Assembly (NCBI GenBank): GCA_963820525.1
Contig: CAWGAA010000001.1
Location: 2,560,001 to 2,624,000, forward strand
Direction: 5' to 3'
Origin: an uncultured Spirochaetota bacterium
GTDB lineage: Bacteria > Spirochaetota > Spirochaetia > SZUA-6 > Fen-1364
DNA: 64,000 nt
Position numbers and translations under genes: made by a program. Positions 29,305-44,685 of the stretch are shown here, piece by piece (position 1 is the first letter of the stretch; every line of letters begins with the position of its first letter). The notes under the pieces are model-generated. The model did not search any database. It saw only the letters and a program-made list of their open reading frames with translations, and was not told where the DNA came from.

Positions 29305-30303
29305 CTACTCCGTATCGAAGGGCGTTCCCAGGGCGGACGGCGGGGTGGCGTTGAGGGCGCGCAGGAGCCTCGCCGCGATCCGCCGAAGCGGTTGGGGCAA
29401 TCTCGCCAGAGTCCTTTCCACCCATTCGGCATTACCGATGTTGACTAAGAGCAGCGTCAGGATCATCAGGGGGAAGGGCGCCACCTGCAATACCTGGGAG
29501 GGGACGCCGGGCAGGAGAGGCTGCAGCACGAGCCCAAGCCACTGGAGCAGGGAGAAGAGGTAGGCCCCGAAGGCGGCTCTGAACGGATTCCACCCGCCGA
29601 AAATCGTGATGGCAAGCACTATCCAGCCGATCCCATCGAGACCCGAGATGGTCCCCTTCCAGCCCGCTTTCACGGAGAGCGAGTAGATCGGTCCGGCCAG
29701 GCCCGCGATAGCTCCGCCCGCCACTGTATAGAGGTAACGGAGCCGGTTGACGTTGGCCCCCCTTATGTAGGCCGCCGCGGGCCGCTCGCCGATTCCTCTG
29801 AGCATGAGTCCGGGACGGGTTCTGTAGATGAACACCCACGAGGCGATGACAAGGATGAAGCTGAGATAGGTCATCACGTCCAGCCTGAAGATCAACGGGC
29901 CGAGCACCGGAATGCGGTCGAGCAGGGGGATGGGCATTGTCGAAAGGCGGGGGGCGGTCTCCCCCATGATGGGGTTTCCCAGAAAATAGGAAAGATCCCG
30001 GCACAACAGGGCGAGGACGAAACCCACCGCCACCTGTGACTGCTTCAGCGTGATACTGGCAAACGCCACCACCAGGGCCACCAGAGCGCCGATCAGCGCT
30101 CCGGCGAGAAATCCCAGCGCGATCGACTGCGTCATGAAGGCTGCCGCGAATCCCCCCATAGCGCACAGGAGGATTGTGCCGTTCATGGAAAGGTTGATCA
30201 CCCCCGCGCGCTCCGACACCGTCTCGCCGATGACGGCAAAAAGAACGGGGGCGGCGGCTGAAAGGACCCCGGAAAGGCTGATGAGCAGAACGTCGGAGCT
30301 CAT
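29305..30303 (-). CDS. Nucleoside/sugar ABC transporter permease
   Basis: GETVSERAGVINL, RGIGERP.AA, GIGWIVLA..IFGGWNP. Confidence 0.9.
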   Translation of the reverse strand: MSSDVLLISLSGVLSAAAPVLFAVIGETVSERAGVINLSMNGTILLCAMGGFAAAFMTQSIALGFLAGALIGALVALVVAFASITLKQSQVAVGFVLALLCRDLSYFLGNPIMGETAPRLSTMPIPLLDRIPVLGPLIFRLDVMTYLSFILVIASWVFIYRTRPGLMLRGIGERPAAAYIRGANVNRLRYLYTVAGGAIAGLAGPIYSLSVKAGWKGTISGLDGIGWIVLAITIFGGWNPFRAAFGAYLFSLLQWLGLVLQPLLPGVPSQVLQVAPFPLMILTLLLVNIGNAEWVERTLARLPQPLRRIAARLLRALNATPPSALGTPFDTE

Positions 30304-30310
30304 TGCGCGC

Positions 30311-31381
30311 CTACCCCCTTTTCAAAAGCCGCTGGCGAGCGCCCTGAGCCAGCATCACGAACAGCACCAGCGTCCCCTGCAGGACGCCGGCCAGGGATGA
30401 GTCCAGCTTGAGCATGATGGGAAGCTGAATGCTGCCCACGTTCAGCCCCGCGAAAAAGAGGGCAACGGGCGCGGCAAGGGATGCCCTGTAGTTTGTCAGC
30501 ATGGCCACCATGAGCCCCAGGTACCCATACCCGCTTGAGATCGACGGGATGAGGCGGTGATACACCGAAGTGACCTGCACCGCCCCGGCAAGGCCGGCGA
30601 AGATCCCGCACAACGCGAACGATATCATCATGTGCTGCCAGGTGGGGATTCCCAGCAGATACGCGGCCCTTGGGTTCCTGCCCACCGCCTTCAAGCGCAG
30701 CCCGAAATAGGTCCCCTGGATAAGGGAATAGATTATCATGATCGACAGGATCGCCATCACGACGGCAGCGGGGCTCAGCCGGGACTGGGCCGTCAGCGTG
30801 GGCATCCAGAGGGACTGCGGGAAGGGCATTGTCCCCGACATGGATGCCACGCCGGGCCGCTTCCAGGGACCGAAAATCAGCCACAGGTTGAGCGCCGTTG
30901 CCACGAAGTTGAGGCCGAGACCCCCGAAGATCTCGTTCACCCCTCCGAAGGTTTTGAGCGCTCCGGCAAGCATGGCCCAGAGGGCGCCGCCGGTCATGCC
31001 CGCCAGAACGCTCATGCCGATCACGAGCGCGGGATTCCAGCCGCTGCTTTGAAGAAGGCGAAGCATCCAGGTCGAGAAGATGGCCCCCAGCGTAATCTGG
31101 CCTTCGATTCCGATGTTCCACAGCCCGACCGTGAAGGTGAGAAGCAGGCCGGAAGTCACCAGGAGCAAAGGAACCCAGGAGACGAGCACGTTCGAGATCT
31201 CATCCCAGGATCCCACGGCGCCGGAAATGATGTCCTTGAAGGCATCCAGGGGCGGAGCCTTGGAAGCGAACAACACGACGGTGGTGAGCGCCAGGGCAAG
31301 GGCGATGGCCCCGATTCGAAATAACGCTTCGGTCCACGGGGAGTTTCTCAAAGCGCCGCCTCCATGGCGAAGCGTTCCCAT
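30311..31381 (-). CDS. Nucleoside/sugar ABC transporter permease
   Basis: WNIGIEGQ, GVNEI, LKAVGRNPRAA, GYGYLG. Confidence 0.9.
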   Translation of the reverse strand: MGTLRHGGGALRNSPWTEALFRIGAIALALALTTVVLFASKAPPLDAFKDIISGAVGSWDEISNVLVSWVPLLLVTSGLLLTFTVGLWNIGIEGQITLGAIFSTWMLRLLQSSGWNPALVIGMSVLAGMTGGALWAMLAGALKTFGGVNEIFGGLGLNFVATALNLWLIFGPWKRPGVASMSGTMPFPQSLWMPTLTAQSRLSPAAVVMAILSIMIIYSLIQGTYFGLRLKAVGRNPRAAYLLGIPTWQHMMISFALCGIFAGLAGAVQVTSVYHRLIPSISSGYGYLGLMVAMLTNYRASLAAPVALFFAGLNVGSIQLPIMLKLDSSLAGVLQGTLVLFVMLAQGARQRLLKRG

Positions 31382-32838
31382 CCCTTTCCTCCGATCAGGG
31401 TTCCGAGCTGCTCCACTGTAAGCTCCGAGGCCGAAAGCGGCGGGGAGACCCGGCCGGAGAAGAACACCAGCACCCTGTCGCTGTATTGCAATATCTCGTC
31501 CAGGTCCGACGAGATGAACACGATCGCCGTGCCGCCGGCGCAGCGTTCCTTGAGCTTGCTCCAGATATACATCGTGGACTCGATATCCAGCCCCCGGGTG
31601 GGATGCTCCAGGAGTATCAGCGAGAGGCGTGTTGGAAGGAGCGCCATCAACATGCGCTGCTGGTTTCCGCCGGAGAGCGACTCCACGGTGCTTGCCGGCA
31701 TTCCCTTGATGTTGTAGGTGGCGATGCGCTCGCCGGCCAGGGCTGCCGCCTTTCGCCGGTCAATGAACAGGCCTTTCATTCCCTCGGACAGAACGAAATG
31801 CTCGGTCAGCGTCAGCCCGGGAACCAGGCCCTGCTCCAGCCGCGCAGCCGGCAGATACACGACTCCCCGCTTCTTGAATGCATGGTGCGACTGGCCGGAC
31901 ACGTCGCTCTCATCGATGCATATCCTGCCGGCCACGGGTCTCGACAGGCCGGCGCACGTCCCCAGGAATATCGACTGCCCGGAGCCTTCCATGCCGGCGA
32001 GCCCGATGACTTCTCCTGCCCTGGCCTGGAAGCTCACATTGCGGATCTGCAGGCGCACGCTTTCCACGGACACCTCGGCCAGGCGGAGCACCGCCGCGCC
32101 GGGAGCGGAGGGGAACCTGTCTGAAGCGGAGATCTGCTTGCCGAACATCATCTCGATCAGGCCGCTGGTCTGGTAGGGCGGCTCGGCGGTGCCGATCAGT
32201 CTTCCCTGGCGGAGAACGGCCACCCGGCCGCACAGGGCTTCCACGTCCTCCAGCTTGTGAGAGACGAACAGAATCGTCATGCCCTGCCCCGCGAGCTTTT
32301 CAAGCGTGGCGAAGAGCTTCTCCTTCTGCGGCAGGCTGATGCCCGTTGTCGGCTCATCGAGGATCAGGGCCCGGGCCCCGAACCATAGAAGGCGGAGGAT
32401 ATCGAGCTGTTGACGCTCGCCGACGGTGAGCGTATCGACATAGGCTTCGGGGTCGAGAAGGAATCCGAACTGTCCGGCCAGCTCCCGGAAGCGCGCGGCG
32501 GCTCCCCGCCGGTCGGGGAACAACCCCCCCTCGCGCCCGAGGATGAAATCGTCGAGCAGCTTCAAGGGGGGAAAGTCGAGGGGATCCTGATGCAGCATCC
32601 CGATGCCGCTTCGGATCGCATCCGCCGGAGAGTGGATGTGAAGGGGCCTGCCGTCCAGGAGGATTTCCCCGCTGTCGGGAGGGATGAAGCCGGAGAGGAT
32701 CTTCATCAAGGTGCTCTTGCCGGCCCCGTTCTCTCCGAGAAGGCCCTGGATGGCGGCGGAAGGAATGGCCAGGGAGATCCCTGCGTTCGCGTGAACCTGC
32801 CCGAATGCCTTGTGGATGTTACGCAGCTCGACCCGCAT
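31348..32838 (-). CDS. ABC transporter ATP-binding protein (two ABC domains, CUT2 type)
   Basis: GENGAGKST, LILDEPT, LSGGNQQR, HPTRGLD. Confidence 0.93.
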   Translation of the reverse strand: MRVELRNIHKAFGQVHANAGISLAIPSAAIQGLLGENGAGKSTLMKILSGFIPPDSGEILLDGRPLHIHSPADAIRSGIGMLHQDPLDFPPLKLLDDFILGREGGLFPDRRGAAARFRELAGQFGFLLDPEAYVDTLTVGERQQLDILRLLWFGARALILDEPTTGISLPQKEKLFATLEKLAGQGMTILFVSHKLEDVEALCGRVAVLRQGRLIGTAEPPYQTSGLIEMMFGKQISASDRFPSAPGAAVLRLAEVSVESVRLQIRNVSFQARAGEVIGLAGMEGSGQSIFLGTCAGLSRPVAGRICIDESDVSGQSHHAFKKRGVVYLPAARLEQGLVPGLTLTEHFVLSEGMKGLFIDRRKAAALAGERIATYNIKGMPASTVESLSGGNQQRMLMALLPTRLSLILLEHPTRGLDIESTMYIWSKLKERCAGGTAIVFISSDLDEILQYSDRVLVFFSGRVSPPLSASELTVEQLGTLIGGKGWERFAMEAAL

Positions 32839-32891
32839 GAAGCATCTCTCCCGCCACGCCGCGGATACCCGAACGGGGGGCACCTCCGGGG

Positions 32892-32928
32892 AAAAAGAAG
32901 GGGGCGAGACCGACGCGAGCCCCGCCCC
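32892..32928 (-). terminator. Intrinsic terminator/attenuator after the BMP gene
   Basis: Minus strand GGGGCGGGGC-loop-GTCTCGCCCC stem followed by a U-rich tract (TTCTTTTT). Confidence 0.65.
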
Positions 32929-32952
32929 TCAGGGGAGTTCCCGAGTGAATAC

Positions 32953-34134
32953 TTACTTGGAAACGCTCTGCCCGACCATGCCTTTCAACAGCTGCGGCAG
33001 ATACCAGATCTGTTGGTCCGTGGGGATCTCGCCGGCTTTCAGGTACGAGGTTCCATCCTGGAGCGCCAGCGGGCCCTTCCAGAGGTTCAGGCCTCTGGCG
33101 AGCTCGGAGATGAACTTGTCCACGTTTGCCGAAGCGGAAGCGGACAGAGCGGCACCCTTCTTGAAGCCGACAGCGGAGGTATCCGGGTTGTTGATGTTCT
33201 TCCAATCCGGGCCGTTCCACTCGAAATGCGATTTCCATTTTCCGCTCATCGCCGAACTGATTGCGCGCTGGTAGGCGGGACCCCAGTTGAAGTAGGGCAC
33301 GCCCAGGCAGACATCGGGCCCCTCTTTGATGGCGTCGGAATAGTCGTAGGGGATGGCCCACACCTTTTTGCCCTGGGCGGCGAGCTTGACGGCTTCGGTC
33401 ACGGCCTCGGTGGTGTCGATGCCGGAGACCACCACGTCGTAGCCCGTGTTGAAGAAGTCGTCGGCAACCTGGGTGGGATCCGAGGTCACCCCGGGGATGT
33501 TGAACCAGAACCCGATCCACGTGACCTTGAACTTCAAGGTGGAGGGATCCTTCTTCAGATACGTGGTCCAGGCGTAGCGTGCGCCAAGGTACACGGCGGA
33601 AGCCAGCCGCCTGGTCTCGGCGTTGATTAGGGGGCCGAGGTAGCCGATCTGGCCGGTCTTGGTGGTGAGGGCTGCAGCAACCCCCGCCATCATCTTGGTG
33701 TATTCCATGCGCCCCATGATGTCGACCATGTTGGGAAGGTCTTTGTATTCCTTGCCCTCCTTCCACACCTGGGCGCCCGACGTCATGATGACGAACACGT
33801 CGGAATGAGCCTGGGCGAATTTGACCGCCTCGTCGCTCATGTCGTCGGAGCTGAAGATGACAAGCTTCGCACCCTTGGCCACCAGGCTTTCGGCAAGCTG
33901 GGAGGCGGTGGTGCCCGGGCGATCCGCCGGATTGACCTTGTCGAGGTACAGCATTTTCGCCCCGGGGACCTTGTTCACGACATACTGGGCGCCGTCGTAG
34001 TTGGCCTGGCTCCAGCCGTGGTCGTTGTACGGACCGACCAGCAGGAGGCCGAAGGTGAAGTCGCTCTGCCCGTAGGCAGCGAAGGCCACGCATGCCATGG
34101 CCAGAAGCAGGACGAGTCTGGTGAGTTGTCTCAT
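32953..34134 (-). CDS. BMP-family ABC substrate-binding protein (purine nucleoside type)
   Basis: VGPYNDHGWS, AGVAAALTTKTGQIGY, WIGFW, FNWGPAY, signal peptide, strong SD. Confidence 0.9.
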   Translation of the reverse strand: MRQLTRLVLLLAMACVAFAAYGQSDFTFGLLLVGPYNDHGWSQANYDGAQYVVNKVPGAKMLYLDKVNPADRPGTTASQLAESLVAKGAKLVIFSSDDMSDEAVKFAQAHSDVFVIMTSGAQVWKEGKEYKDLPNMVDIMGRMEYTKMMAGVAAALTTKTGQIGYLGPLINAETRRLASAVYLGARYAWTTYLKKDPSTLKFKVTWIGFWFNIPGVTSDPTQVADDFFNTGYDVVVSGIDTTEAVTEAVKLAAQGKKVWAIPYDYSDAIKEGPDVCLGVPYFNWGPAYQRAISSAMSGKWKSHFEWNGPDWKNINNPDTSAVGFKKGAALSASASANVDKFISELARGLNLWKGPLALQDGTSYLKAGEIPTDQQIWYLPQLLKGMVGQSVSK

Positions 34135-34248
34135 ACTCCCTCTCCTTTCACGAGATGCTTGCAAAGTGACATGGACACGATTTGTCTCGCGAGATCCAGA
34201 TTGTACTACACTTGTCGCCGCCAGCACAATCGCCGCCCGATCCCCTGT

Positions 34249-34359
34249 GGGCCGGCCTTCTGACATCCCTGTCGCGGCCGGCCTCCGCCCTCCGCGCGGC
34301 GGAATACCGCCGCGGGGCTAGGGCCGGCCTTCTGACATCCTTGTCGCGGCCGGCCTCCG
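34249..34359. repeat. Two 39-bp palindromic direct repeats (REP-like) separated by 33 bp
   Basis: GGGCCGGCCTTCTGACATCC(C/T)TGTCGCGGCCGGCCTCCG at 34249-34287 and 34321-34359, one mismatch. Confidence 0.85.
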
Positions 34360-34409: not shown

Positions 34410-35684
34410 CTAGGGCCGCACACGCTTCCTGTCCCTCGGGAACAGGGCGGCCTCCTTGACGTTGGCCAGTCCCAGCACCTTCTGCGTCAGCCTCTCAAGC
34501 CCGATGGCGAACCCCCCATGGGGCGGGCAGCCGTATTTGAAGATGGACAGGTAGTCGGAGAGCCCCGCCGGATCCAGGCCGAAGGTCCGGGCGTTTTCAA
34601 CAAGCATTTCATGGCGATTGATCCTCATGCCGCCCGACGTGACCTCGAGGCCCCGGAAGAGCAGGTCGAAGGCCCTGGTCTTGTTGTTCTCCGCGGGGAA
34701 GGTATAGAAGGGGCGTGACTTGCGCGGGTAGGCATGGACGAACACGGCATCGATTCCGGCCTCAACGGCCGCCCACTCGCAGAGGGTGCGCTCGCCCTCC
34801 GGCGTGATCTCGTACACCTTCTTGCCCGTCTGCCGGGAAATAATCTCCCGCGCCTCGTCGTATGCCACGCGGGGGATCTTGGGGCACAGCTCGGGCTCGG
34901 GCACCGATGCGTTCCACGCGGCCAGGTCCCCGGCGTTCTCCTCCGTGAGCCCGGAGAAGATCGATTGCAGGATCCCGACCTCCAGGTCCATCAGCTCCAT
35001 CTCGCTTTCGATGAAGGCCATCTCGACGTCCAGCGACACGAACTCGTTGATATGACGGGGAGTGTCGTGCTTTTCGGCGCGGTAGGCGGGGCCGATCTCG
35101 AAGACGCGCTCCAGGCCCGAGGCGATCATTGCCTGCTTGTACAGCTGCGGGGATTGCGTCAGGTACACGCGGGTGTCGAAGTACTCGACGGCGAAAAGGC
35201 CGGTGCCGCCCTCGGTCCCGGTGCCGATGAGCTTCGATGTCTTGATCTCGAAAAACCCCTGGCTCCTCAGGTACTCCGAGAACCTCTTGAGGATGGTTGA
35301 CTGCACTCGGAAGATCGAAAGGATCTGGGGGTTCCTGAGGCTGATCATCCTGTTGTCGAGGATCGATTCGAGGGAGAGCTTGTCCGGCTCCTGGTTCACG
35401 GGAATGGGGAGGTCGGGGGCCGCTGCGGAAAGCACCTCGATCCCGGAAACCCGAACCTCGGCCCCGCCGGGGGCCTTCGTGTTGGCCGCCGCCAGGCCGG
35501 AGACGCGCACCACGGACTCCAGCGTCACATCCGGCTTGGCTTCGAAGACGAGCTGAACGATGCCGGAGCGGTCACGCAGGAGGAGAAACGAAACCTTGCC
35601 CAGGTCTCGTATCCTGTGAACCCATCCGAAGAGGGTGATCTCCTGCCCCACGCGGGAGGCGACGTCACGAGCCAGCGTCCGCAT
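34410..35684 (-). CDS. aspS: Aspartyl-tRNA synthetase, short archaeal-type, non-discriminating
   Basis: GWVHRIRDLG, KAPGG, YLTQSPQLYKQ, YRAEKH, GCPPHGGFAIGLERL. About 425 codons with no GAD insertion. His/Pro residues typical of ND-AspRS. Confidence 0.92.
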   Translation of the reverse strand: MRTLARDVASRVGQEITLFGWVHRIRDLGKVSFLLLRDRSGIVQLVFEAKPDVTLESVVRVSGLAAANTKAPGGAEVRVSGIEVLSAAAPDLPIPVNQEPDKLSLESILDNRMISLRNPQILSIFRVQSTILKRFSEYLRSQGFFEIKTSKLIGTGTEGGTGLFAVEYFDTRVYLTQSPQLYKQAMIASGLERVFEIGPAYRAEKHDTPRHINEFVSLDVEMAFIESEMELMDLEVGILQSIFSGLTEENAGDLAAWNASVPEPELCPKIPRVAYDEAREIISRQTGKKVYEITPEGERTLCEWAAVEAGIDAVFVHAYPRKSRPFYTFPAENNKTRAFDLLFRGLEVTSGGMRINRHEMLVENARTFGLDPAGLSDYLSIFKYGCPPHGGFAIGLERLTQKVLGLANVKEAALFPRDRKRVRP

Positions 35685-38076
35685 TGCCCAGCTCCATCCT
35701 TTCCTGCGCTTCCTCCTCGCTCTCGGAAAAGGCAAGACAGGCGAGGAGCTTCGTGTAAGCAGATTCGGTGGTGAGCGATCCCATGGGAACCGCCCCTTCG
35801 CGCCACAGCTCGTGGGAGGTCACATAGCGGGAGAAGTCCACGATCCCTTCCTGCTGGGAGGTGCAGTAGATCTTCACGCCCCTCTCCTTTGCCTCGAGGA
35901 AGGCCTTTCGAAGCGAGTAGGGAGACTCGCGGAGGTTCGCCGTTCCGGTGTCGTACAGCTCCAGGATGAACCAGCGGATGCCCTTGTTCATGAAATCGAT
36001 GAGATGCTCGCCTCTCATGCCGGGATAGATGCGCAGAATCAGCGTGGCGTTGATGGCCGCCTCAAGGCGGGCACGGATCCTCTCCTTGTCCACGGCGAAG
36101 GGCTCGGCAAACAGGGGGTTTGCCGTGTGCACGCGATGGGGCATATTCCAGTTCCTGAATCCGTCAGTGGCCACCCTCTCGAATCTGAGGTTGAGGGGAG
36201 AGAACACCTCGGAGCCGAACACGACGTAAACGCCGGGGGCTTCGCTGGAGGCCACCTGGATGGCCTTTCGAAGATTGGGGATCGCGTCGCTTCCCTCCCT
36301 GCCGGGGGGCTGGAGGGATGCCGTGAAGACGATCGGCACGGGCGGCTGGGGAAACAGCCAGAAGAGGAGGGAGGAGGTGTAGGCGAGGGTGTCGGTCCCA
36401 TGGGCCACGACGATCCCCGCAGCCCTGCCCTGATGCAGGTTCTCTTCGATGCTCGCGATGAGCCTGGCCCAGTCCTCCGGAGTGATCTCCTCGCTCAACA
36501 GCTCTCCCAGCTCCGCCTCTTCGAAGGCGAGGCTCTTGGAGAACTTCCCCTCGGCCTCCAGCATCTTCATGATCTGGGTGGAGTCGCCTCCGACGATATC
36601 CCCCGTTTCCGAGACTCGGCCCACGATCGCCCCTCCGAAGGAGAGGATCCTGATCACGGAGAGGGCGAGCTTTTCCCGAACGAGGCTCTGCACGAGGGCG
36701 GGATCCGCCCTGCCCGAGGTGGCCTTCATGATCTCCCCGACCAGGTAGCCGGTGGGCTTGTGGTCGCCCCTCCTGATTGCCTCGACGATGGAGGCGTTCT
36801 CCTTCATCACGCGATCGATATAACCGCCCAGGACCTTGGGGTCCGTTATCTGCTCCCAGCCTTTCTCGCGAATAATCGCCAGGGGATCCTTGTCCTCCAG
36901 AAAGACGCTCTCGAGGACCGCCTTGGCGATCTTTCCATGAATGCGCTTGGAGGCCAGAAGCGTCAGAAGCTCGCACAGCCGCTTGGGGGTGAGGGGGCTG
37001 GCGGAGAGGGAAACCTCGGCGCGGTTCAAATGCTTCCGCACGTCCGAAGCAAGCCACAGCGCCACACTCTGGGCATCGGCTCCCAGGGCCACGGTCTGCT
37101 CGAAGAAGTCGGCCTGCTCCTTTTCAGCGCAGAGGTACTCCGCCTGCTCCTCGCTCAAGCCGTAGTGGGCAATGAACCTTTGCTTGACTGCCTCGGGAAG
37201 TTCCACGAGGGAATCCTCGACAGCGGAGAGAAACTTCTCGTCGGCAACGAAGGGGGGCAGGTCCGGCTCGGGGAAATAGCGATAGTCTGCCGAGGCTTCC
37301 TTGGTTCTCATTCCTTCCGTGATGTCGCGATTCTCGTTCCACAGGCGGGTCTCCTGCTTCACCGTGCCCCCGCGCTCCAGGATTTCCTCCTGCCGCTCGA
37401 TCTCGTAGCTGATGGCCTTTCTGACGAACTTGAAGGAGTTCAAGTTCTTCACCTCGACCTTGTTGCCCAGGCCCTGGCCCGCCAGGTTCACGGAAACATT
37501 GGCGTCGCAGCGCAGGGAGCCTTCCTCCATGTTTCCGTCGCAGACCCCCAGGTAGCGGACCATGCGCCGCAGGTGCTGGAGGAAGATCTCGGCCTCTTCG
37601 CCCACCTCCATGTCGGGCTGCGTGACGATCTCCAGGAGGGGAGTGCCGGTCCTGTTGAAGTCCAGAAGCGTCACGTCTCCCGCGTGGATCATCTTTCCCG
37701 CATCCTCCTCGAGGTGGACCTCGCGGATGCGAACGCGCCGCTTGCGTTTTCGAAGCTCGATCTCCAGGAAGCCGTCGGTGCCGAGGGGAGAGCGGAACTG
37801 GGAGATCTGATAGTTCTTGGGCAGGTCGGGGTAGAAGTAGTTCTTCCTCTCGAACAGGGTTGACTTGGAGAGCGTGCAGCTCAGGGCCCGCGCCACCACG
37901 TAGCCCATGCGGATCGCCTCGAGGTTCAGGGCAGGGAGCACTCCGGGATAGCCCATGCACACGGGGCACACATTGGTGTTGGGCTCGTCTCCGAAGGCGG
38001 CGCGGCAGCCGCAGAACACCTTCGTGCGGGTGAGCAGCTGGATGTGGACCTCAAGGCCGAGGAACGACGCGTACAC
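35665..38076 (-). CDS. gatB: GatB amidotransferase subunit fused to a C-terminal asparaginase/GatD-like domain
   Basis: aa 1-472: GLEVHIQL, YFYPDLPKNYQISQ, HLEEDAGK, LRCDANVS, YRYFPEPDL, Yqey-like tail. aa 473-803: ILSFGGAI, VAHGTDTLAYT, SDAIPNL, IYPG, TSQ, LTTESAYTKL. Confidence 0.93.
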   Translation of the reverse strand: MYASFLGLEVHIQLLTRTKVFCGCRAAFGDEPNTNVCPVCMGYPGVLPALNLEAIRMGYVVARALSCTLSKSTLFERKNYFYPDLPKNYQISQFRSPLGTDGFLEIELRKRKRRVRIREVHLEEDAGKMIHAGDVTLLDFNRTGTPLLEIVTQPDMEVGEEAEIFLQHLRRMVRYLGVCDGNMEEGSLRCDANVSVNLAGQGLGNKVEVKNLNSFKFVRKAISYEIERQEEILERGGTVKQETRLWNENRDITEGMRTKEASADYRYFPEPDLPPFVADEKFLSAVEDSLVELPEAVKQRFIAHYGLSEEQAEYLCAEKEQADFFEQTVALGADAQSVALWLASDVRKHLNRAEVSLSASPLTPKRLCELLTLLASKRIHGKIAKAVLESVFLEDKDPLAIIREKGWEQITDPKVLGGYIDRVMKENASIVEAIRRGDHKPTGYLVGEIMKATSGRADPALVQSLVREKLALSVIRILSFGGAIVGRVSETGDIVGGDSTQIMKMLEAEGKFSKSLAFEEAELGELLSEEITPEDWARLIASIEENLHQGRAAGIVVAHGTDTLAYTSSLLFWLFPQPPVPIVFTASLQPPGREGSDAIPNLRKAIQVASSEAPGVYVVFGSEVFSPLNLRFERVATDGFRNWNMPHRVHTANPLFAEPFAVDKERIRARLEAAINATLILRIYPGMRGEHLIDFMNKGIRWFILELYDTGTANLRESPYSLRKAFLEAKERGVKIYCTSQQEGIVDFSRYVTSHELWREGAVPMGSLTTESAYTKLLACLAFSESEEEAQERMELGNADAGS

Positions 38077-38079
38077 GCT

Positions 38080-39474
38080 TCAGCTCCACTTCATGGGGAA
38101 TCCCGGGGGATCCGGGGAAGGGAACACCTTCTCATACGCCGCGCAGGCCTGGAAGAGCCGAGACTCGCCAAAGGCCGGCGCGATGAACTGCATCCCGATG
38201 GGAAGCCCGCCCTCCAGCGCGGCGGGGAAGGAGAGGGCGGGGAGCCCCGCCAGGTTGGCCGAGCAGGTGAAGATATCGGCAAGCTTCTGGGAGAACGGGT
38301 CTGCCTCCGCGCTTCCCCTCTCGAATGCGGGAACCGGGTAGACCGGCATGAGAATGAGGTCCACGGCGGCGAAGGCCTTCTGGAAATCATTGCGGATCGC
38401 GGTTCGCACCTTCTGCGCCTTCAGGTAGTACTGGTCCTGGAAGCCCGAGCGAAGCACATATGTGCCCAAAAGGATGCGCAGCTTCACTTCGTCGCCGAAG
38501 CCCTCGTTGCGCGTGAGAAGCATCATCTGCTCCGGGTTATCGGCCTGGGCCGCACGCGAGCCGTAGCGTACCCCGTCGAAGCGCGCGAGGTTGGCGCTCG
38601 CCTCCGCGGTGGCGATGATGTAGTAGCAGGAAACGACGTGCTCAAGGGTCGGGAGGGTGACTTCCTGGACCGCGAAGCCCAGCTTGCCCAGGGCGGCCTT
38701 CGTGTTCTCCAGGGTCTTCTTCACGTCGGGGTGCATGGGAACCTCGGCGCATTCGCGGGGGACCCCGATGACGATCTTTCCCGCTTTGGAGGCCGGCCGA
38801 GGATCGGCGGGCTGATAGGGCAGCGAGGAGTGATCGAGGGGATCCTGGCTCCGCATCGCGCCGAAGACCTCGGAGGCGGTGGAAACAGTCTTTGCCGCCA
38901 CCCCGATCACTTCGAGTGAGGAGGCATAGGCCACCAAGCCGTAGCGGGAGACCGATCCATAGGTGGGCTTCAGGCCATAGACGCCGCAGAAAGCGGCGGG
39001 CTGCCGGACGGAGCCTCCCGTGTCGGAGCCGAGGGCGAAGGGAACGATTCCCGAGGCGACGGCTGCCGCGGATCCGCCGCTGGACCCCCCGGGCACGCGC
39101 TTGAGGTCCCAGGGGTTGGCGGTCTTTTGGAAGGCCGAGTTCTCGGTGGAGGAGCCCATGCCGAACTCATCCAGGTTGGTTTTTCCAGCTACCACGGCGC
39201 CCGCGGCCTGGAGCCGGGCCACGGCGGTAGCGGTGTAGGGCGACACGAAGGAGCCGAGGATGCGCGAGCCGCAGGTCAACCGGAACGATCGGACGGCGAT
39301 ATTGTCCTTCACTGCGAAGGGCACCCCTGCAAGAAGGCCGGACGCCGCCGAATCTTCACCGCCCAGAGCGGGATCGAACTGGAGAAATGCGCGCACCTTC
39401 TCTTCCCGGGCCAGGGCTTGAGTCTTCCACTTTTCGCTCACTGCCCCGGGCGCCGCGATGCCGTGCCAATCCAT
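38080..39474 (-). CDS. gatA: Glu/Asp-tRNA amidotransferase subunit A
   Basis: VKDN, GKTNLDEFGMGSSTENS, PGGSSGGSA, GSDTGGSVRQPA, NLARFDGVRYG. Confidence 0.96.
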   Translation of the reverse strand: MDWHGIAAPGAVSEKWKTQALAREEKVRAFLQFDPALGGEDSAASGLLAGVPFAVKDNIAVRSFRLTCGSRILGSFVSPYTATAVARLQAAGAVVAGKTNLDEFGMGSSTENSAFQKTANPWDLKRVPGGSSGGSAAAVASGIVPFALGSDTGGSVRQPAAFCGVYGLKPTYGSVSRYGLVAYASSLEVIGVAAKTVSTASEVFGAMRSQDPLDHSSLPYQPADPRPASKAGKIVIGVPRECAEVPMHPDVKKTLENTKAALGKLGFAVQEVTLPTLEHVVSCYYIIATAEASANLARFDGVRYGSRAAQADNPEQMMLLTRNEGFGDEVKLRILLGTYVLRSGFQDQYYLKAQKVRTAIRNDFQKAFAAVDLILMPVYPVPAFERGSAEADPFSQKLADIFTCSANLAGLPALSFPAALEGGLPIGMQFIAPAFGESRLFQACAAYEKVFPSPDPPGFPMKWS

Positions 39475-39481
39475 AGGACCT

Positions 39482-39760
39482 CTATAATACGTTGGGGATG
39501 ACGATGAAGCGGTCTTCCCGCTGGGGAGCGTTATCGAGAAGCCGGTCGGTATCGACGCCGGCTGACTCCCTGTCTTCTCGGAGCCGGTTTTCCTTCAAGA
39601 GGGCATGTGTCGTGGGTTGGAGCGCCTCGACATCGAGGCTCCTCATGTGAGAGAAGTAGCCCAGCATCTGTTCGACGGCCTGCCGGAGCTTCTCCACCTC
39701 ATGCGGCTTCAGAGAGAGTCGCGCCATGCGGGCGGTAGTGTACAGCTCCTCGGCATCCAT
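39482..39760 (-). CDS. gatC: Glu/Asp-tRNA amidotransferase subunit C
   Basis: ARMARL, LRED, LLDNAP, FIVIPNVL. Position directly before gatA. Confidence 0.9.
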   Translation of the reverse strand: MDAEELYTTARMARLSLKPHEVEKLRQAVEQMLGYFSHMRSLDVEALQPTTHALLKENRLREDRESAGVDTDRLLDNAPQREDRFIVIPNVL

Positions 39761-39797: not shown

Positions 39798-40032
39798 GGC
39801 GCCGGAAGCGCTCGGGATCTTACGGAAGGAGCTTGACGGAGAGAATGGCGATATTTTACATTATTGAAGGGATATCGAGGCTTCTCCTGTCGGGCGGAGA
39901 CTTTCTCTGGCGTTCAAAGCCGCTATTATCCAAGGAATACTCCGTTCTCGACCGTCATCGGTGTAAAAAAAATTTGACGGTAGAGAAGAGCATGGTACAA
40001 TACGGCAACCAAACCAAGAGCGAGGAATGTGA

Positions 40033-41454
40033 GTGGTCAAAAAGGATTTCCCGAGGGTTCACTTCTACGATCGAGAGCTGGTAGGGCTCTACGACGAGAC
40101 CTGGACGCTCATGAAGGACTACTGGAAGAAGGGCACCCAGAGAAACGGATTCGCCTCCCGCTATTTCAATCACCCCGACAGCACGATGATCAATCAGTTC
40201 GAGGCATGCTTCGCCACCTTCTTCCTCGTGTACTCCAACCGCATCTTCCCCGTGCTTTCCCTGCTGGACAACTTCTACGGCAAGCAGGAGGACTCCGGCG
40301 CGATCAGGGGGGAGTACAGCGAAGAGGATGGAAGGCCGCTGCACCGGCGCGACAACCCCAAGGGAATCCTCCCTCCGCTTTTCGCCTGGGCCGAGCATAA
40401 CATCTATCACAAGCTTGGGGCGAAGAAGCGAATCCGGGACGTTCTTCCAACCCTCGAGCGCTACTACCAGTGGATAGAGGATACCTTCAAGCTGGAAAAC
40501 GGCCTGTTCTCGGTCCCCCTTTCCGCCACGATGATGGACAATTCTCCCCGGGAAGACATGCACTTCCCCATCGACTTCAACTCCCAGATGGCGCTCTTCG
40601 CCTACTACATGTCGGAGCTCGCCGACATCATCAACGACAAGGAAACCAACTACAAGTACAGGAAGAGCTACTTCTCGCTGAAGACAAAGATCAACTCCCT
40701 GATGTGGGACGAGAGGGACGGCTTCTACTACGATCTGGACGCACGGGAGAAACGGCTGCGCGTCAAGACGATCGCCTCGTTCTGGCCCCTGATTGCCGAG
40801 ATTCCCAACGAAGCCAGGGGAGAGAGGCTCATCGACCACCTGGTGGATCCCCACGAGTTCGGGATCGAGAATCCCTTCCCGACCCTGGCAGTGAAGGACA
40901 AGCACTTCGACCCCATCGGGATGGGCTACCGCGGCTCGGTGTTTCCGCCCTTCAACTATATGGTCATCAAGGGCCTGGAGAAATACAAGAGGTTCGACCT
41001 CGCCCGCGAGTTCGCCATCCGCCACCTCTACTACGTTCTGGACGGGCTCTACCCGAATAACGGCAAGAAGGGTTCCCTCTTCGAAGCCTATGCGCCCCAA
41101 ACCGAGGGTCCCGCAAAGTGGCCGGGGAAAAGGGGCTTCCCGAGGTCCATGTTCCTCCCCTCCACCGCCATTTCAACGGTTTCCCTCATGATGGAGAACA
41201 TCATCGGGCTGGACATTTCCCTGCCGAGGAAGACGGTGGATTGGACCATCCCCACCCTCGAGATGATGGGAATCGAGGACCTGGCGCTGAAGAGGAACCT
41301 CATCACCATTCTGAGCAGCAAGAGCACGAGGGGCTGGGAGATACATCTGGAGAGCGAAAAGCTCTACTACCTCACGATCGACCTGTTCGGGGCGAAAAAC
41401 AAGACCCTCCCCATCCCTTCAGGCAAGTGCTCCATCCTGGTGGACAAGATATAG
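40033..41454 (+). CDS. GH63/MGH1-like (alpha/alpha)6 glycoside hydrolase (trehalase-like family)
   Basis: PPLFAWAE, MDNSPR, MWDERDGFYYD, YRGSVFPPFNYMVIKGL, FEAY. Confidence 0.75.
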   Translation: MVKKDFPRVHFYDRELVGLYDETWTLMKDYWKKGTQRNGFASRYFNHPDSTMINQFEACFATFFLVYSNRIFPVLSLLDNFYGKQEDSGAIRGEYSEEDGRPLHRRDNPKGILPPLFAWAEHNIYHKLGAKKRIRDVLPTLERYYQWIEDTFKLENGLFSVPLSATMMDNSPREDMHFPIDFNSQMALFAYYMSELADIINDKETNYKYRKSYFSLKTKINSLMWDERDGFYYDLDAREKRLRVKTIASFWPLIAEIPNEARGERLIDHLVDPHEFGIENPFPTLAVKDKHFDPIGMGYRGSVFPPFNYMVIKGLEKYKRFDLAREFAIRHLYYVLDGLYPNNGKKGSLFEAYAPQTEGPAKWPGKRGFPRSMFLPSTAISTVSLMMENIIGLDISLPRKTVDWTIPTLEMMGIEDLALKRNLITILSSKSTRGWEIHLESEKLYYLTIDLFGAKNKTLPIPSGKCSILVDKI

Positions 41455-41469
41455 CACACGGGCTCTCGA

Positions 41470-42057
41470 TTATAAGAGACTTCGCCCCTTGAACGACCGG
41501 GAGAGGGTCTGCTTGTCGGCAAATTCGAGGTCCCCCCCGACGGGAAGACCGAAAGCGATCCGTGAGACCTTGGCCCCGGTATCCTTGAGCGCCTTCACGA
41601 GATAGAGGGCCGTGGTTTCGCCCTCAACCGTAGGATTGGTGGCGACGATCACTTCCCTGACCGCGCCCCTCCGCACCCTTTCGATGAGACTGGAAATCCG
41701 AAGCTCACCCGGTCCGACGCCGTCGATCGGGGAGATGGCTCCCATGAGCACATGGTAGAGGCCGTGGTACTCGCGGATGGATTCAATGGTGAGCACGTCC
41801 TTGGGCTCCTCCACCACGCAGATCTGGCCCGCGTCCCTGCTCTTATCCGTGCAGATCCCGCAGGGATCGATGTCGGTATATGTTCCGCATACGCTGCACG
41901 GGCGGATGGTCTGCTTGAGGCTTGCGATATCTTCGGCGAGCGAGCGCGCCAGGGACTCGTCGGCTCGAAGCAGGTAGTAGGCGATTCGAGAGGCGCTCTT
42001 TCTCCCCAGGCCGGGCAGGCGGGTGAGGTGTCCGATCAGCCTCTCCAGGGCGTTCAC
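41470..42057 (-). CDS. recR: Recombination mediator RecR
   Basis: LPGLGRKSA HhH motif, C4 zinc finger, ICVVEE, ATNPTVEGETTA. Confidence 0.97.
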   Translation of the reverse strand: MNALERLIGHLTRLPGLGRKSASRIAYYLLRADESLARSLAEDIASLKQTIRPCSVCGTYTDIDPCGICTDKSRDAGQICVVEEPKDVLTIESIREYHGLYHVLMGAISPIDGVGPGELRISSLIERVRRGAVREVIVATNPTVEGETTALYLVKALKDTGAKVSRIAFGLPVGGDLEFADKQTLSRSFKGRSLL

Positions 42058-42059
42058 GG

Positions 42060-42380
42060 CTACAAGCCCAGAAGCCCCGGGGGAAGATCCAGCCCCGTGA
42101 ACTGGGACATCTCTTCCTTGAGCTTTTCCTTGAGCCTTTCCAGGGTGTCGGTGAGGGCCGCAAGCACGAGGTCTTCCAGCATCCTGATGTCCTTCTGATC
42201 CACAGCCTCGGGCGAAATGGCCACCTTCTCCACGCTCATCTGCCCGTTCATCTCGATCGTGACCAGACCTCCGCCCGCGGAGCCGCTGACCTTCAGGGAG
42301 CGGAGCTTCTCCTGGATCTCTCCCATACGGGCCTGGAGGTTCTGCAACTGCTTCAGCATATCAAAGGGGTTGATTGCCAT
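42060..42380 (-). CDS. ybaB: YbaB/EbfC nucleoid-associated protein
   Basis: GSAGGGLV, MLEDLVLAA. Located between dnaX and recR. Confidence 0.93.
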   Translation of the reverse strand: MAINPFDMLKQLQNLQARMGEIQEKLRSLKVSGSAGGGLVTIEMNGQMSVEKVAISPEAVDQKDIRMLEDLVLAALTDTLERLKEKLKEEMSQFTGLDLPPGLLGL

Positions 42381-43911
42381 GCCCCTCTCCTTTCACGACT
42401 TCTCCGCGAAAGACATTGCGGAGAAGATCCACACGAGGGTCGGGTACCACGACATCCGATTTGGCCTCCTGGAAGCTGACCTTGACCTTCACGGCCTTTC
42501 CGATGAGCTGGGAAACCCGCTCGCTCACGAGCTCCCTCTCCCTCATGATCTGCTCCCCCGCGAAGCGGTCCCGCGCAAGGAAGCCGAGCTCGAGCTCCGT
42601 ATCCGTGAAGACGGCGGATACGGCTTTTTCCAGCCATGAGGAGATCGACGGCTTCTCCCGACGGAAGCCCTCGCACAGCCGCTTCACGATCTCGCCGGCG
42701 TCGGGATTCTCCGCCTGTCGCCGGACAGCCGCCGGCTGGGCCCGGGCAGCCGCTTTCACTCCCGGAGTGGACACGATCTCGCCCTTGATCTTCGCCAGGG
42801 CTTCCCGTATCTCGGACGGGGAGATCATCCTGTCCAGCTCCACGAGCCGCGAGACGGCGAGCTCCAGCTCGAAGCGCTGGTTGAGCGAAAAACGGATGTT
42901 TCTATAGAGGGCCAAGAGGAGCTCAATCGCCTTTTCGATCTGGGGAGCCGACAGGGACTCGAGCACTCCGGCATCGAAGTCCTCGGCCGCGTATCCAAGG
43001 AGAGTATCCCGTGTGATTCCGCTCTTGATGAAGAGGAGGTTCCTGAAATACTCGCAGAGGTCTGCGACGAACTGCTCTATGGAGACGCCGGAGGCGAGAA
43101 CCTGATCGAGCCTCTCGAAGACCTTCCCCACATCGCCCGAACGCAAGAGGCGCGCCAGCTCGTTCATCTCGTCGATGCCGAGGACACCGAGCTTTTCCCT
43201 GATGTTCTCCAGGGTGATGGTGCCGGCGGAGAACGAGACGATCTGGTCGAGGAGCGTATAAGCGTCGCGGAGGCTTCCCGTCGCCTCCTTGGCTATCCAG
43301 GTGAGAGCCCTTTCCTCGGATTTCACGCCGAGCTCTCCCGCCGCCTCCCGGAGCTTTTCCTTGATCTCCGCCGTGGAGATGAGGCGGAAGTTGTACTGCT
43401 GGCAGCGGGAGCGGATCGTTGCGGGGACCTTGTGCACCTCGGTGGTGGCGAAAATGAACACGATGTACGGCGGAGGCTCTTCGATGGTTTTCAAAAGCGC
43501 GTTGAAAGCGCTGTTGGAAAGCATATGGACTTCATCGATGATATAGATCTTGTGCCGGGCGCTGTTGGGAGCGAAGAGGACCTCGTCGCGGATCTCCCGC
43601 ACGTCGTTCACGCTCGTGTTGGAGGCCCCATCGATCTCGATCACGTCCAGCGAGGAGCTGTGCGCGATCTCCTGACACGCGGGGCACGTTCCACAGGGCT
43701 TCTCCGTCGGGCCTTTTTCGCAATTCAGCGCCTTGGCGAGGATCCGCGCCACAGAGGTTTTTCCCACCCCCCGGGGGCCGGCAAAGAGGTACGCGTGGGC
43801 GATCCGTCCCTGCGCGATAGAACTGCGCAGGGTGGCTGCCACGAACTCCTGCCCGACGAGGTCGTCGAAGGTTTGAGGTCTCTTTCGAGTCGCGGTGACT
43901 TCGTACGGCAT
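42361..43911 (-). CDS. dnaX: DNA polymerase III gamma/tau
   Basis: RPQTFDDLVGQ, GPRGVGKT, IIDEVHMLS, FNALLKTIEEPP, SRCQ. Confidence 0.97.
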   Translation of the reverse strand: MPYEVTATRKRPQTFDDLVGQEFVAATLRSSIAQGRIAHAYLFAGPRGVGKTSVARILAKALNCEKGPTEKPCGTCPACQEIAHSSSLDVIEIDGASNTSVNDVREIRDEVLFAPNSARHKIYIIDEVHMLSNSAFNALLKTIEEPPPYIVFIFATTEVHKVPATIRSRCQQYNFRLISTAEIKEKLREAAGELGVKSEERALTWIAKEATGSLRDAYTLLDQIVSFSAGTITLENIREKLGVLGIDEMNELARLLRSGDVGKVFERLDQVLASGVSIEQFVADLCEYFRNLLFIKSGITRDTLLGYAAEDFDAGVLESLSAPQIEKAIELLLALYRNIRFSLNQRFELELAVSRLVELDRMISPSEIREALAKIKGEIVSTPGVKAAARAQPAAVRRQAENPDAGEIVKRLCEGFRREKPSISSWLEKAVSAVFTDTELELGFLARDRFAGEQIMRERELVSERVSQLIGKAVKVKVSFQEAKSDVVVPDPRVDLLRNVFRGEVVKGEGHGNQPL

Positions 43912-43925
43912 AGGCTCAGTGAAAA

Positions 43926-44054
43926 AACCCCTTTAGCTCCATTCAAGCCGAGTACGGCTCATGAGCACGCTGCTTACCGCTGCTACCTTCCGGTCCTGAC
44001 GGGGTTAGGCAGCAGCTCATAGCGTATGACCTGGATATCATCGCTAAAGGGGTT
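43926..44054 (-). ncRNA. ffs: Signal recognition particle RNA (4.5S type)
   Basis: Minus strand TCAGGACCGGAAGGTAGCAGC domain-IV motif inside a long hairpin closed by AACCCCTTTAGC/GCTAAAGGGGTT. Lies upstream of dnaX. Confidence 0.92.
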
Positions 44055-44056
44055 AG

Positions 44057-44143
44057 CGGAGAGAGTGGGATTCGAACCCACGGTACCCTTACGAGTACAC
44101 ACGCCTTCCAAGCGTGCACCTTCGGCCACTCGGTCATCTCTCC
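44057..44143 (-). tRNA. tRNA-Ser(GGA)
   Basis: Anticodon arm CACGC-TTGGAAG-GCGTG, long variable arm, GGTTCGAATCC. CCA not encoded. Confidence 0.95.
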
Positions 44144-44235
44144 CAGGGCCGTGAACGGCCCGCGGCCGGCAAAACCCCGCTGCCGCTTGCTGGAGCAAGC
44201 ACATCGGATGGCGGAAGCCGGTCAAGCTCACACAT

Positions 44236-44322
44236 CGGAGAGAGTGGGATTCGAACCCACGGAGCCGCAAGCGGCTCAACGGTTTTCGAGACCGCCCGAT
44301 TCGACCGCTCTCGCATCTCTCC
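44236..44322 (-). tRNA. tRNA-Ser(CGA)
   Basis: Anticodon arm GCGGT-CTCGAAA-ACCGT, long variable arm. Confidence 0.95.
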
Positions 44323-44348
44323 CAAAGGTCGTCCGAAGCCGACCGATC

Positions 44349-44423
44349 CGTGCCCAAGAGGATTCGAACCTCCGACCTTTAGATCCGCAGTCTAATGCTC
44401 TATCCAGGCTGAGCTATGGGCAC
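44349..44423 (-). tRNA. tRNA-Arg(GCG)
   Basis: GTGCCCA acceptor stem, anticodon arm TTAGA-CTGCGGA-TCTAA, GGTTCGAATCC. Confidence 0.93.
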
Positions 44424-44427
44424 AAAA

Positions 44428-44514
44428 CGGAGAGGAGGGGATTCGAACCCCTGATACCCTTACGAGTATAACGCCTTAGCAGGGCGCCCGATTCGACCAC
44501 TCTCGCACCTCTCC
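44428..44514 (-). tRNA. tRNA-Ser(GCT)
   Basis: Anticodon arm GCGCC-CTGCTAA-GGCGT, long variable arm. Confidence 0.95.
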
Positions 44515-44597
44515 AATTCAGGATCCCTTGCGTCGCCGGAAGGCCGCCGCGACTGCTCACTCGATCGCACGACTCATCGCGGCGCGGGGAAAGTGAC

Positions 44598-44685
44598 CGG
44601 AGAGGGAGGGATTCGAACCCCCGGAACCGCAGAGCGGCTCAACGGTTTTCAAGACCGCCTCCTTCGACCACTCGGACACCTCTCC
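44598..44685 (-). tRNA. tRNA-Ser(TGA)
   Basis: Anticodon arm GCGGT-CTTGAAA-ACCGT, long variable arm. Confidence 0.95.

Follow-up and report, generated by a model that had tools for sequence, protein, structure and literature searches.

A GatB subunit with an appended putative pseudo-asparaginase domain in a gatC-gatA-gatB-aspS operon of an uncultured Spirochaetota bacterium

We analysed a 64,000-nucleotide stretch of DNA (the window) from an uncultured Spirochaetota bacterium (GTDB lineage Bacteria; Spirochaetota; Spirochaetia; SZUA-6; Fen-1364), located at positions 2,560,001 to 2,624,000 of the forward strand of contig CAWGAA010000001.1 (GenBank assembly GCA_963820525.1). In this stretch, a gene for the GatB subunit of the GatCAB amidotransferase continues without a break into an asparaginase-like domain. 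The fused gene, gatB::asn, is one of four minus-strand genes that are tightly packed or overlapping, in the order gatC, gatA, gatB::asn and aspS. Their window coordinates are given below.

39482..39760, minus strand: gatC (92 aa), Pfam GatC 58.8 bits, ending 8 nt before the gatA start
38080..39474, minus strand: gatA (464 aa), amidase/glutaminase subunit, Pfam Amidase 454.9 bits, TIGR00132 513.2 vs 481.1
35665..38076, minus strand: gatB::asn (803 aa), with a GTG start
36661..38076, minus strand: GatB part of the fused gene, residues 1-472
35665..36660, minus strand: asparaginase-like part of the fused gene, residues 473-803, including the stop codon
34410..35684, minus strand: aspS, non-discriminating (archaeal-type) Asp-tRNA(Asn) ligase, matched by NF003483 and TIGR00458

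The fused gene appears in the ORF (open reading frame) listing of the window as a single frame with no interruption. Pfam placed GatB_N at residues 6-283 (375.4 bits) and GatB_Yqey at 323-470 (140.5 bits), followed by Asparaginase at 475-647 (118.4 bits, E 3.5e-34) and Asparaginase_C at 680-794 (46.9 bits versus a cut-off of 34.6); these borders leave a linker of at most 4 residues between YqeY and the asparaginase domain. In NCBIfam, the GatB equivalog NF004012 scored 611.5 bits against a cut-off of 338, and TIGR00133 scored 544.3 against 314.8. For the second half, no curated model of asparaginases or of GatD reached its cut-off: TIGR00519 (asparaginase) gave 128.8 bits versus 260.5, and the GatD models NF003217 and TIGR02153 gave 129.2 versus 310 and 122.9 versus 324, their best stretches spanning only model positions 69-220 and 53-208, respectively. 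The initial annotation, made from the sequence letters, had described one uninterrupted 803-codon ORF with a complete GatB at residues 1-472 and an asparaginase layout at residues 473-803. The ORF listing, the translation and the profile scan all agree with this description, and the strings it quoted (RILSFGGAI, HGTDTLAY, SDAIPNL, IYPG, LTTESAYTKL and LRFERVATDGF) are all present in the translation.

An AlphaFold2 model of the fused protein, computed with 52 aligned homologues, had a mean predicted local distance difference test score (pLDDT) of 86.6 and a predicted template modelling score (pTM) of 0.59. Foldseek matched the GatB half to the solved chains 3ip4_B, 3h0l_B, 3al0_B and 2g5i_B with template modelling (TM) scores, by target length, of 0.80-0.87 (0.77-0.87 over the solved GatB chains matched). 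By the same measure, the second half matched the Pyrococcus/Thermococcus asparaginases 4q0m, 5ot0 and 1wls at 0.78-0.82, and GatD 1zq1_A at 0.58. The top sequence matches of the domain were the Pyrococcus asparaginases 1wls and 4q0m (E 1e-33 and 8.6e-31). The second half is a type I asparaginase fold appended to a full GatB.

Such an architecture could result from an artefact in which two genes are joined through a missed stop codon or frameshift, and the initial annotation had pointed to the vicinity of 36660 as the place to look for one. None was present in Logan contigs from four other public runs, one of which may be the window's own source sample. These contigs span the junction 36660/36661 with 0 gaps and no indel listed (X1, 35837-37833; X2, 35818-37365; X3, 36054-36934; X5, 36399-36951). 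No RNA dataset was listed as containing this stretch. Furthermore, a word-indexed homologue search with residues 473-803 returned 717 proteins at E ≤ 1e-3, and all 120 of those listed contain GatB_Yqey and both asparaginase domains; GatB_N is also present in 110 of them, the other 10 being shorter (459-642 aa). Of the 47 carrier genomes described below, 46 encode the domain and GatB_N in a single reading frame; in G515 the frame is broken. Because the junction is spanned in four runs and the fusion occurs in 57 of 401 genomes sampled evenly from the class, we regard the fusion as genuine. Nothing was found in favour of an assembly or annotation artefact, which the junction-spanning contigs and fused homologues refute and which we consider virtually impossible. 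Frame breaks within the gene were also seen at the long-read metagenome-assembled genome (MAG) loci L010, L020, L021, L054 and L058.

The GatB equivalog score and the adjoining gatA and gatC identify gatB::asn as the putative B subunit gene. GatA contains the stretches AVKDN, GGSSGG and GSDTGGS, which we take to be the Lys, Ser and Ser motifs of amidases, and both GatB and GatA look functional as judged from their sequences. The aspS product scored 511 bits with NF003483 (cut-off 353) and 408.6 with TIGR00458 (368.4). Its ORF of 441 codons is open from 35735, and the match to the model starts at residue 17. Translation probably begins with the ATG at 35684, which gives a 20-nt overlap with the end of gatB::asn. 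The complete transamidosome operon reported in the initial annotation, including the intact GatA motifs, is therefore upheld, with GatCAB and an aspartyl-tRNA synthetase of the non-discriminating type (ND-AspRS) in one tight operon. An Rfam search of the whole window at gathering thresholds found no riboswitch or T-box upstream of gatC or near the operon; its 6 matches were five tRNAs and a signal recognition particle (SRP) RNA, all at 43938-44685.

To assign the residues of the domain, we used the asparaginases of P. horikoshii and P. furiosus (1wls, 4q0m) as the aligned reference. Three codon positions in the window carry the residue states discussed here.

36628..36630, minus strand: Ala483 codon, nucleophile Thr site, GGT replaced by GGA (coordinates computed from the ORF start)
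36388..36402, minus strand: HGTDT, residues 559-563, the kept Thr-Asp of the second triad
36184..36186, minus strand: Arg631 codon, catalytic Lys site

Ala483 aligns with the Thr of the GGT motif, Asp493 with the loop Tyr and Arg631 with the Lys, three residues that we take to be catalytic in the Pyrococcus enzymes. GatD and asparaginases employ a Thr nucleophile plus a Thr-Lys-Asp triad, according to the available text of a review (PMC2330236).

Conservation was assessed in 106 full-length homologues (≥740 aa) out of 121 proteins. Position 483 was Ala in 101 of these (Ser 2, Thr 1, Arg 1, Val 1), while Ser528, Glu529, Thr561 and Asp562 were each invariant (106/106). Position 631 was Lys in 84 and Arg in 22, and position 493 was Asp in 62 and Glu in 44. 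The Thr-Asp-Lys triad is thus largely kept in the family, as Lys occupies position 631 in most homologues. Among 61 rows (60 intact reference-genome loci plus the window), GGA was found in all 61 and Lys in 59; the two with Arg at the Lys site were the window and L071. The domain appears to be under strong selection: 71 positions in residues 473-803 are near-invariant, including ELYDTGTA and CTSQQEG, and the mean column conservation is 0.75, versus 0.82 for the GatB half. The initial annotation had read the first catalytic Thr of TGGT as Ala and HGTDT as intact, and the alignment agrees on both counts, with the Thr-to-Ala change conserved among the homologues in both sets. Its remark that LRFERVATDGF contains no Lys is true of this protein, but the site is held by Arg, and the substitution is not conserved, since most homologues keep the Lys.

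HMMER, run exhaustively over 1.84 billion representatives, returned 5569 matches at E ≤ 1e-3, of which 41 reached E ≤ 1e-30. The best 150 of the 5569, minus 16 covering fewer than 250 of the 331 residues, were used for an alignment of relatives. All 108 standalone relatives aligned at the nucleophile motif carry GGT or a close variant, versus GGA in the fused family (exceptions: GGS in P0131 and P0141; GGT in P0132 and P0151). A deep fused subclade (P0148, P0150, P0152, P0153, P0156 and P0157) has HGLDTL, with Leu at the Thr561 site; of its six members, only P0157 retains a Lys at the Lys site. On this alignment, nearly the whole catalytic set appears to be gone from the subclade with the fusion kept, and the loss of the nucleophile appears to be fixed across the fused family. 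Canonical hydrolysis by the domain is very unlikely, because the nucleophile and the loop Tyr are lost, this loss is fixed in the family, the catalytic set is lost in five of the six deep-subclade members, and an intact GatA adjoins.

The initial annotation had described the protein as a GatCAB/GatD chimera. In a maximum-likelihood tree of 135 rows, the fused sequences and their short fragments formed one clade (27 rows; Shimodaira-Hasegawa-like approximate likelihood ratio test, SH-aLRT, 99), and the GatD sequences P0258 (640.1 bits) and P0271 (502 bits) were placed in the other half of the tree with classical type I asparaginases. An approximately unbiased (AU) test was run under LG+G4 on 54 of the 135 rows: 15 fused sequences including the window, 2 GatD, and the remainder standalone (every third row plus named neighbours). 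The fused rows were again a single clade (15 rows, SH-aLRT 99), and forcing them together with GatD cost 20.7 log-likelihood units, a constraint that was not rejected (p-AU 0.141). The trees point clearly to a single origin of the fused domain. A sister relationship to GatD is not supported, with the constrained tree not rejected at that value. The chimera description consequently finds no support: both GatD cut-offs are missed, the N-terminal part of GatD is missing, and the domain forms its own clade.

We then consider where the fusion occurs. A relative is encoded at 71 loci of the reference genomes, and 69 of these have the domain at E ≤ 1e-8. Their record titles are all Spirochaetota, bar one Alphaproteobacteria-labelled MAG, and the carriers include Treponema primitia, Breznakiella homolactica and Gracilinema caldarium. 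Among the cluster members are Treponema phagedenis proteins titled 'asparaginase domain-containing protein' or 'amidotransferase subunit B'. The contig labelled as an uncultured Alphaproteobacteria MAG (L073) has gatC-gatA-gatB::asn-aspS with frame breaks and a domain 50% identical to that of the window, and may represent mis-binning, or transfer with decay. The 57 carriers in the class sample belong to 31 of 155 genera and include all 7 of the other genomes from the window's family. In the phylum-wide sample, 2 of 301 genomes gave a match at E ≤ 1e-40, and no case outside the class was found among these genomes.

We followed up 47 of the 57 carriers in detail, omitting nine in which the domain was only partly matched (G601, G427, G117, G509, G531, G618, G629, G641 and G647) and G456, which is 79% complete. 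The fused gene is the sole GatB_N locus in 43 of the 47; a second, standalone GatB is present in the other four (G000, the window's genome, and G561, G571 and G576). The fused gene adjoins GatA in 44, with none there in G633, G645 and G495 (16 kb of G495 was not covered), and an AspRS/AsnRS-like class II gene is directly downstream in 42. Asparaginyl-tRNA synthetase (AsnRS) scored above cut-off in 45 and glutaminyl-tRNA synthetase (GlnRS) was found in 40. AsnB occurs in 12 carriers and AsnA in 18, and neither was found in 22, including all 6 other family genomes. From these gene contents, the usual state appears to be a lone GatCAB with a domain-bearing GatB, beside ND-AspRS, in a genome that can charge tRNA-Asn and tRNA-Gln directly. 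The wide spread of the fusion, usually as the sole GatB and with AsnRS and GlnRS present, together with the second, canonical gatCAB of the window's genome, points to asparagine biosynthesis rather than a tRNA-charging necessity. An accessory, Asn-specialised extra copy was rejected as a general explanation given that the fused gene is so often the sole GatB_N match; it may apply to the window's genome, with its two operons.

More than the operon type is represented among these loci. In 38 of the 69 (group B), gatA, gatC and aspS are not nearby, and the GatB part is 36-44% identical to that of the window.

Group B loci: L022-L045, L047-L053, L055, L062-L064, L067, L069, L072; in the class sample, genomes G633 and G645

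The hosts include T. primitia, Breznakiella and Gracilinema, along with numerous termite-gut MAGs. GGA and Lys are kept at these loci. GatB_N scores 99-134 bits there, versus about 380 otherwise (Breznakiella 129.3 versus 375.4 in the window), and this degenerate GatB half argues that the group B proteins are not amidotransferases. No GatA was found anywhere in G633 or G645, both of which have AsnA, AsnB and AsnRS.

The window's genome (5.05 Mb, 4 contigs, 96.7% complete) contains a second, canonical operon on contig C2 (L005:6479-10098; G000:C2, about 124.5-128.1 kb), consisting of a weak GatC match, gatA (560 aa, 529.1 bits) and gatB (497 aa, 611.7 bits) without an asparaginase domain. The two sets of paralogues are 43% (GatB) and 48% (GatA) identical. 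The possibility that the C2 operon was mis-binned is ruled out by its GC content (0.606 versus 0.601 for C1) and tetranucleotide correlation (r=0.995). The C2 GatA has a repetitive Pro/Lys/Arg-rich tail after the amidase domain. The genome also encodes AsnRS (467.2 bits, cut-off 342.6), GlnRS (698.9 bits) and AsnB (480.7 bits, cut-off 267.1); AsnA was not found in this 96.7% complete assembly. Arg631 and redundancy with AsnB and a second GatCAB therefore co-occur in this genome. The acceptor stem of tRNA-Asn(gtt) pairs 5'-UCCCCUG with CGGGGGA-3', that is, it has U1-A72, as do both tRNA-Gln genes. The available text of PMC1635274 gives U1-A72 as a determinant of bacterial transamidation. Elsewhere on C1, L006:4835-5338 (G000:C1:2514834-2515337) encodes a 167-aa standalone N-terminal asparaginase domain with TGGT, HGTDT and the VRKN Lys intact and no Asparaginase_C after it; it is flanked by a PAS histidine kinase on one side and a methyltransferase on the other, and a tyrS/trpS-type synthetase is found downstream.

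A dimer test was carried out on two copies of residues 473-803 with the family alignment, in three runs with 3 controls. The predicted dimer scored 0.87, versus 0.00 for the best control; in the benchmark, 20 of 30 proteins whose solved structure is a one-chain pair reached the mark, compared with 1 of 23 whose solved structure is a single chain. The runs agreed in no fewer than 90% of contacts, and the partner pLDDT was at least 85. The predicted symmetric interface includes, among others, residues 493-494 and the family-invariant motifs LSEEI (527-533), TDT (561-563), FER (632-636), YPG (684-688), ELYDTGTA (706-716) and SQQEG (740-744), and it covers what remains of the active site. The domain is thus predicted to homodimerise through the asparaginase interface.

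We propose that GatB::asn would act as subunit B in a functional GatCAB amidotransferase, with a pseudo-asparaginase lacking the Thr nucleophile directly behind the tRNA-binding YqeY domain. Ammonia would still come from GatA, and the domain would hydrolyse neither Asn nor Gln. Pairing through the classical 'intimate dimer' interface of asparaginases would link two protomers of GatCAB to give a (GatCAB)2 particle, which would fit the dimeric ND-AspRS encoded alongside. Together, the four genes would constitute a module for tRNA-dependent asparagine synthesis, of the Thermus/Deinococcus type. Additionally, the pocket remnant at the interface (Ser528-Glu529, Thr561-Asp562 and Lys/Arg631) may bind Asn or Asp and provide feedback control. 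We infer both the scaffold role and the ligand binding, and we give about an even chance to the domain being a non-catalytic, dimerising, possibly Asn-binding module of the tRNA-dependent asparagine-synthesis machine.

The pocket may also be the whole point of the domain. As an amino-acid sensor, it would bind Asn in free form (or Asp, Gln or Glu), thereby tuning the transamidase, kinase or tRNA binding of GatB allosterically, with dimerisation incidental, and would place tRNA-dependent asparagine synthesis under feedback control. The four invariant residues, together with Lys or Arg at 631, favour such a sensor, as does the junction of the domain with tRNA-binding YqeY through the very short linker. 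Thr-to-Ala nucleophile mutants of real asparaginases have been crystallised with intact Asn (PDB titles 5dnc, 7c8x), so the natural GGA domain plausibly binds Asn uncleaved, and the presence of AsnRS in nearly all carriers makes the sensing of free Asn physiologically sensible. However, the predicted dimer interface contains these invariant residues, whose conservation may be structural, and the deep subclade keeps the fusion despite Leu at the Thr561 site and, in five of six members, no Lys. We consider a pure sensor possible, though doubtful. A combined form, in which the nucleophile-less domain acts as a natural 'substrate trap' and free Asn at the GatB-GatB interface switches GatCAB and ND-AspRS off or on, seems to us unlikely. 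Because the candidate ligand residues are also interface residues, scaffold and sensor, two of the three roles suggested in the initial annotation, cannot be separated from sequence alone, and Asn or Asp binding at the interface with feedback control of asparagine synthesis is a live possibility. A different role would be docking or tRNA handling, in which the domain contacts ND-AspRS or the elbow of tRNA-Asn and channels Asp-tRNA(Asn), with no dimer needed. The AspRS/AsnRS-like gene directly downstream in most carriers, the 20-nt overlap in the window and the attachment straight onto YqeY would suit it; group B, however, retains the domain without aspS, and we know of no RNA-binding role for the asparaginase fold. 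On balance, we judge docking improbable.

The initial annotation had also raised a non-canonical second ammonia source, that is, an active asparaginase or glutaminase using Thr561 or another nucleophile and feeding GatB as GatD feeds GatE. HGTDT and Lys/Arg631 are retained, a few members have Thr or Ser at the nucleophile site, and the group B genomes G633 and G645, having no GatA that we could find, would need another ammonia source if their proteins are still amidotransferases. Yet the Thr nucleophile that GatD and asparaginases use, according to the available text of PMC2330236, is Ala in almost all homologues, the loop Tyr site is Asp or Glu, and an intact GatA lies next to the fused gene in 44 of 47 genomes. 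The catalytic set is, moreover, lost in most of the deep subclade, and the GatB half of group B is degenerate. With the nucleophile lost and an intact GatA adjacent, an ammonia-supplying domain is highly improbable.

Several observations weigh against the proposed non-catalytic, dimerising module. A few members have Thr or Ser at the nucleophile site, such as Treponema phagedenis P0132 (GGT). In the main clade, neither the Thr-Asp-Lys/Arg triad nor the Ser-Glu pair varies, a pattern that would also be compatible with some remaining or modified catalysis, or with a purely ligand-sensing role. Since AsnB and a second gatCAB are present, the module is not the sole Asn route in the window's genome. 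Group B keeps the fusion without gatA, gatC or aspS, and matching to AspRS therefore cannot be the family-wide role. Solved asparaginase and GatD dimers exist, so the pass in the dimer test may be mere likeness. At a pTM of 0.59, the placement of the domain relative to GatB, GatA or tRNA is not readable from the AlphaFold2 model. An architectural role, the pairing of two GatB, would be the most economical one shared by the family as a whole; in the operon-type members, the domain would pair two GatCAB beside the dimeric ND-AspRS.

Other genes surround the operon. Upstream, four tRNA-Ser genes (gga, cga, gct, tga), tRNA-Arg(gcg) and a small SRP RNA are tightly clustered at 43938-44685 on the minus strand, directly upstream of dnaX (42361-43911); recR is at 41470-42057. 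An ORF of 381 aa at 39955-41100 on the minus strand has no family match and overlaps, on the opposite strand, a 473-aa ORF at 40033-41454 on the plus strand. The latter has weak glycosidase/trehalase-like matches (57.8 bits versus a cut-off of 625), the sole family support of the pair. Downstream of aspS, 29305-34266 on the minus strand encodes an ABC transporter set of a PnrA/Bmp-like binding protein, an ATPase and two permeases; the permeases resemble 'putative B6 ABC transporter' models below their cut-offs, and no link to the amidotransferase operon was seen.

Residues 1-472 are like the GatB of known bacterial GatCAB (3ip4_B, 3h0l_B, 3al0_B; transamidosomes 3kfu and 4wj3), as is the gatC-gatA-gatB order. 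In contrast to these solved proteins, an extra 331-residue domain of asparaginase fold follows YqeY here; the solved GatB chains matched by Foldseek have 398-482 residues, the length of the GatB half alone. With the Pyrococcus and Thermococcus type I asparaginases (4q0m, 1wls, 5ot0) the domain has both asparaginase domains, HGTDT and the (predicted) dimer interface in common, whereas it has GGA for GGT, Asp for the loop Tyr and Arg for the Lys, and is fused to GatB. Thermus and Deinococcus possess a second, non-discriminating AspRS for tRNA-dependent asparagine synthesis. The components of their asparagine biosynthesis, ND-AspRS, GatCAB, AsnRS, GlnRS and U1-A72 tRNA-Asn, are also found in the window's genome, which differs in having AsnB and a second gatCAB too, the four genes in one operon, and the extra GatB domain. 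The available text of PMC4206432 reports AsnRS, GlnRS and GatCAB together in Thermus, Deinococcus and Bdellovibrio.

The archaeal GatDE (1zq1, 2d6f) likewise combines a kinase-transamidase of the GatB/GatE family with a type I asparaginase fold, the dimer being predicted here. GatD is the homodimeric core of an alpha2-beta2 complex and needs its catalytic Thr nucleophile to liberate ammonia, as described in the available text of PMC2330236. In archaeal GatD2E2, two GatE are held together by a GatD dimer, an arrangement to which the proposed (GatCAB)2 may be likened. GatD is, however, a separate subunit, whereas the fusion here is covalent and C-terminal; the nucleophile Thr is lost (Ala483), GatA is present as the amidase, and the N-terminal part of GatD is missing.

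The fused protein is already in public databases under generic names. In line with the initial annotation, which knew of no characterised example, we found no characterised GatB-asparaginase fusion in the literature, with subscription journals and bioRxiv supplements outside the search, and the words 'fused' and 'fusion' are absent from the available text of the review PMC2330236. We regard the architecture, residue states, conservation, operon and genomic distribution as established. We class the fused protein as a GatCAB subunit with an appended putative pseudo-asparaginase.

GatCAB is a textbook enzyme of translation, solved alone and in transamidosomes, and the GatB chains matched here are too short for such a domain. 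A large part of one bacterial class relies, mostly solely, on a GatB welded to the fold of GatE's archaeal partner. If the domain dimerises the enzyme, the stoichiometry and geometry of the asparagine transamidosome would differ from expectation, and if it senses Asn, the supply of the amino acid would be tied directly to its tRNA-dependent synthesis. A substrate trap, if true, would make this the first allosterically regulated tRNA-dependent amidotransferase and a bacterial, convergent re-creation of GatD2E2, in which an asparaginase has been turned from ammonia donor to product sensor. The family would also offer a clean natural example of an enzyme fold becoming a pseudoenzyme under strong selection, with a sister lineage, group B, in which the GatB half appears to have been retired as well.

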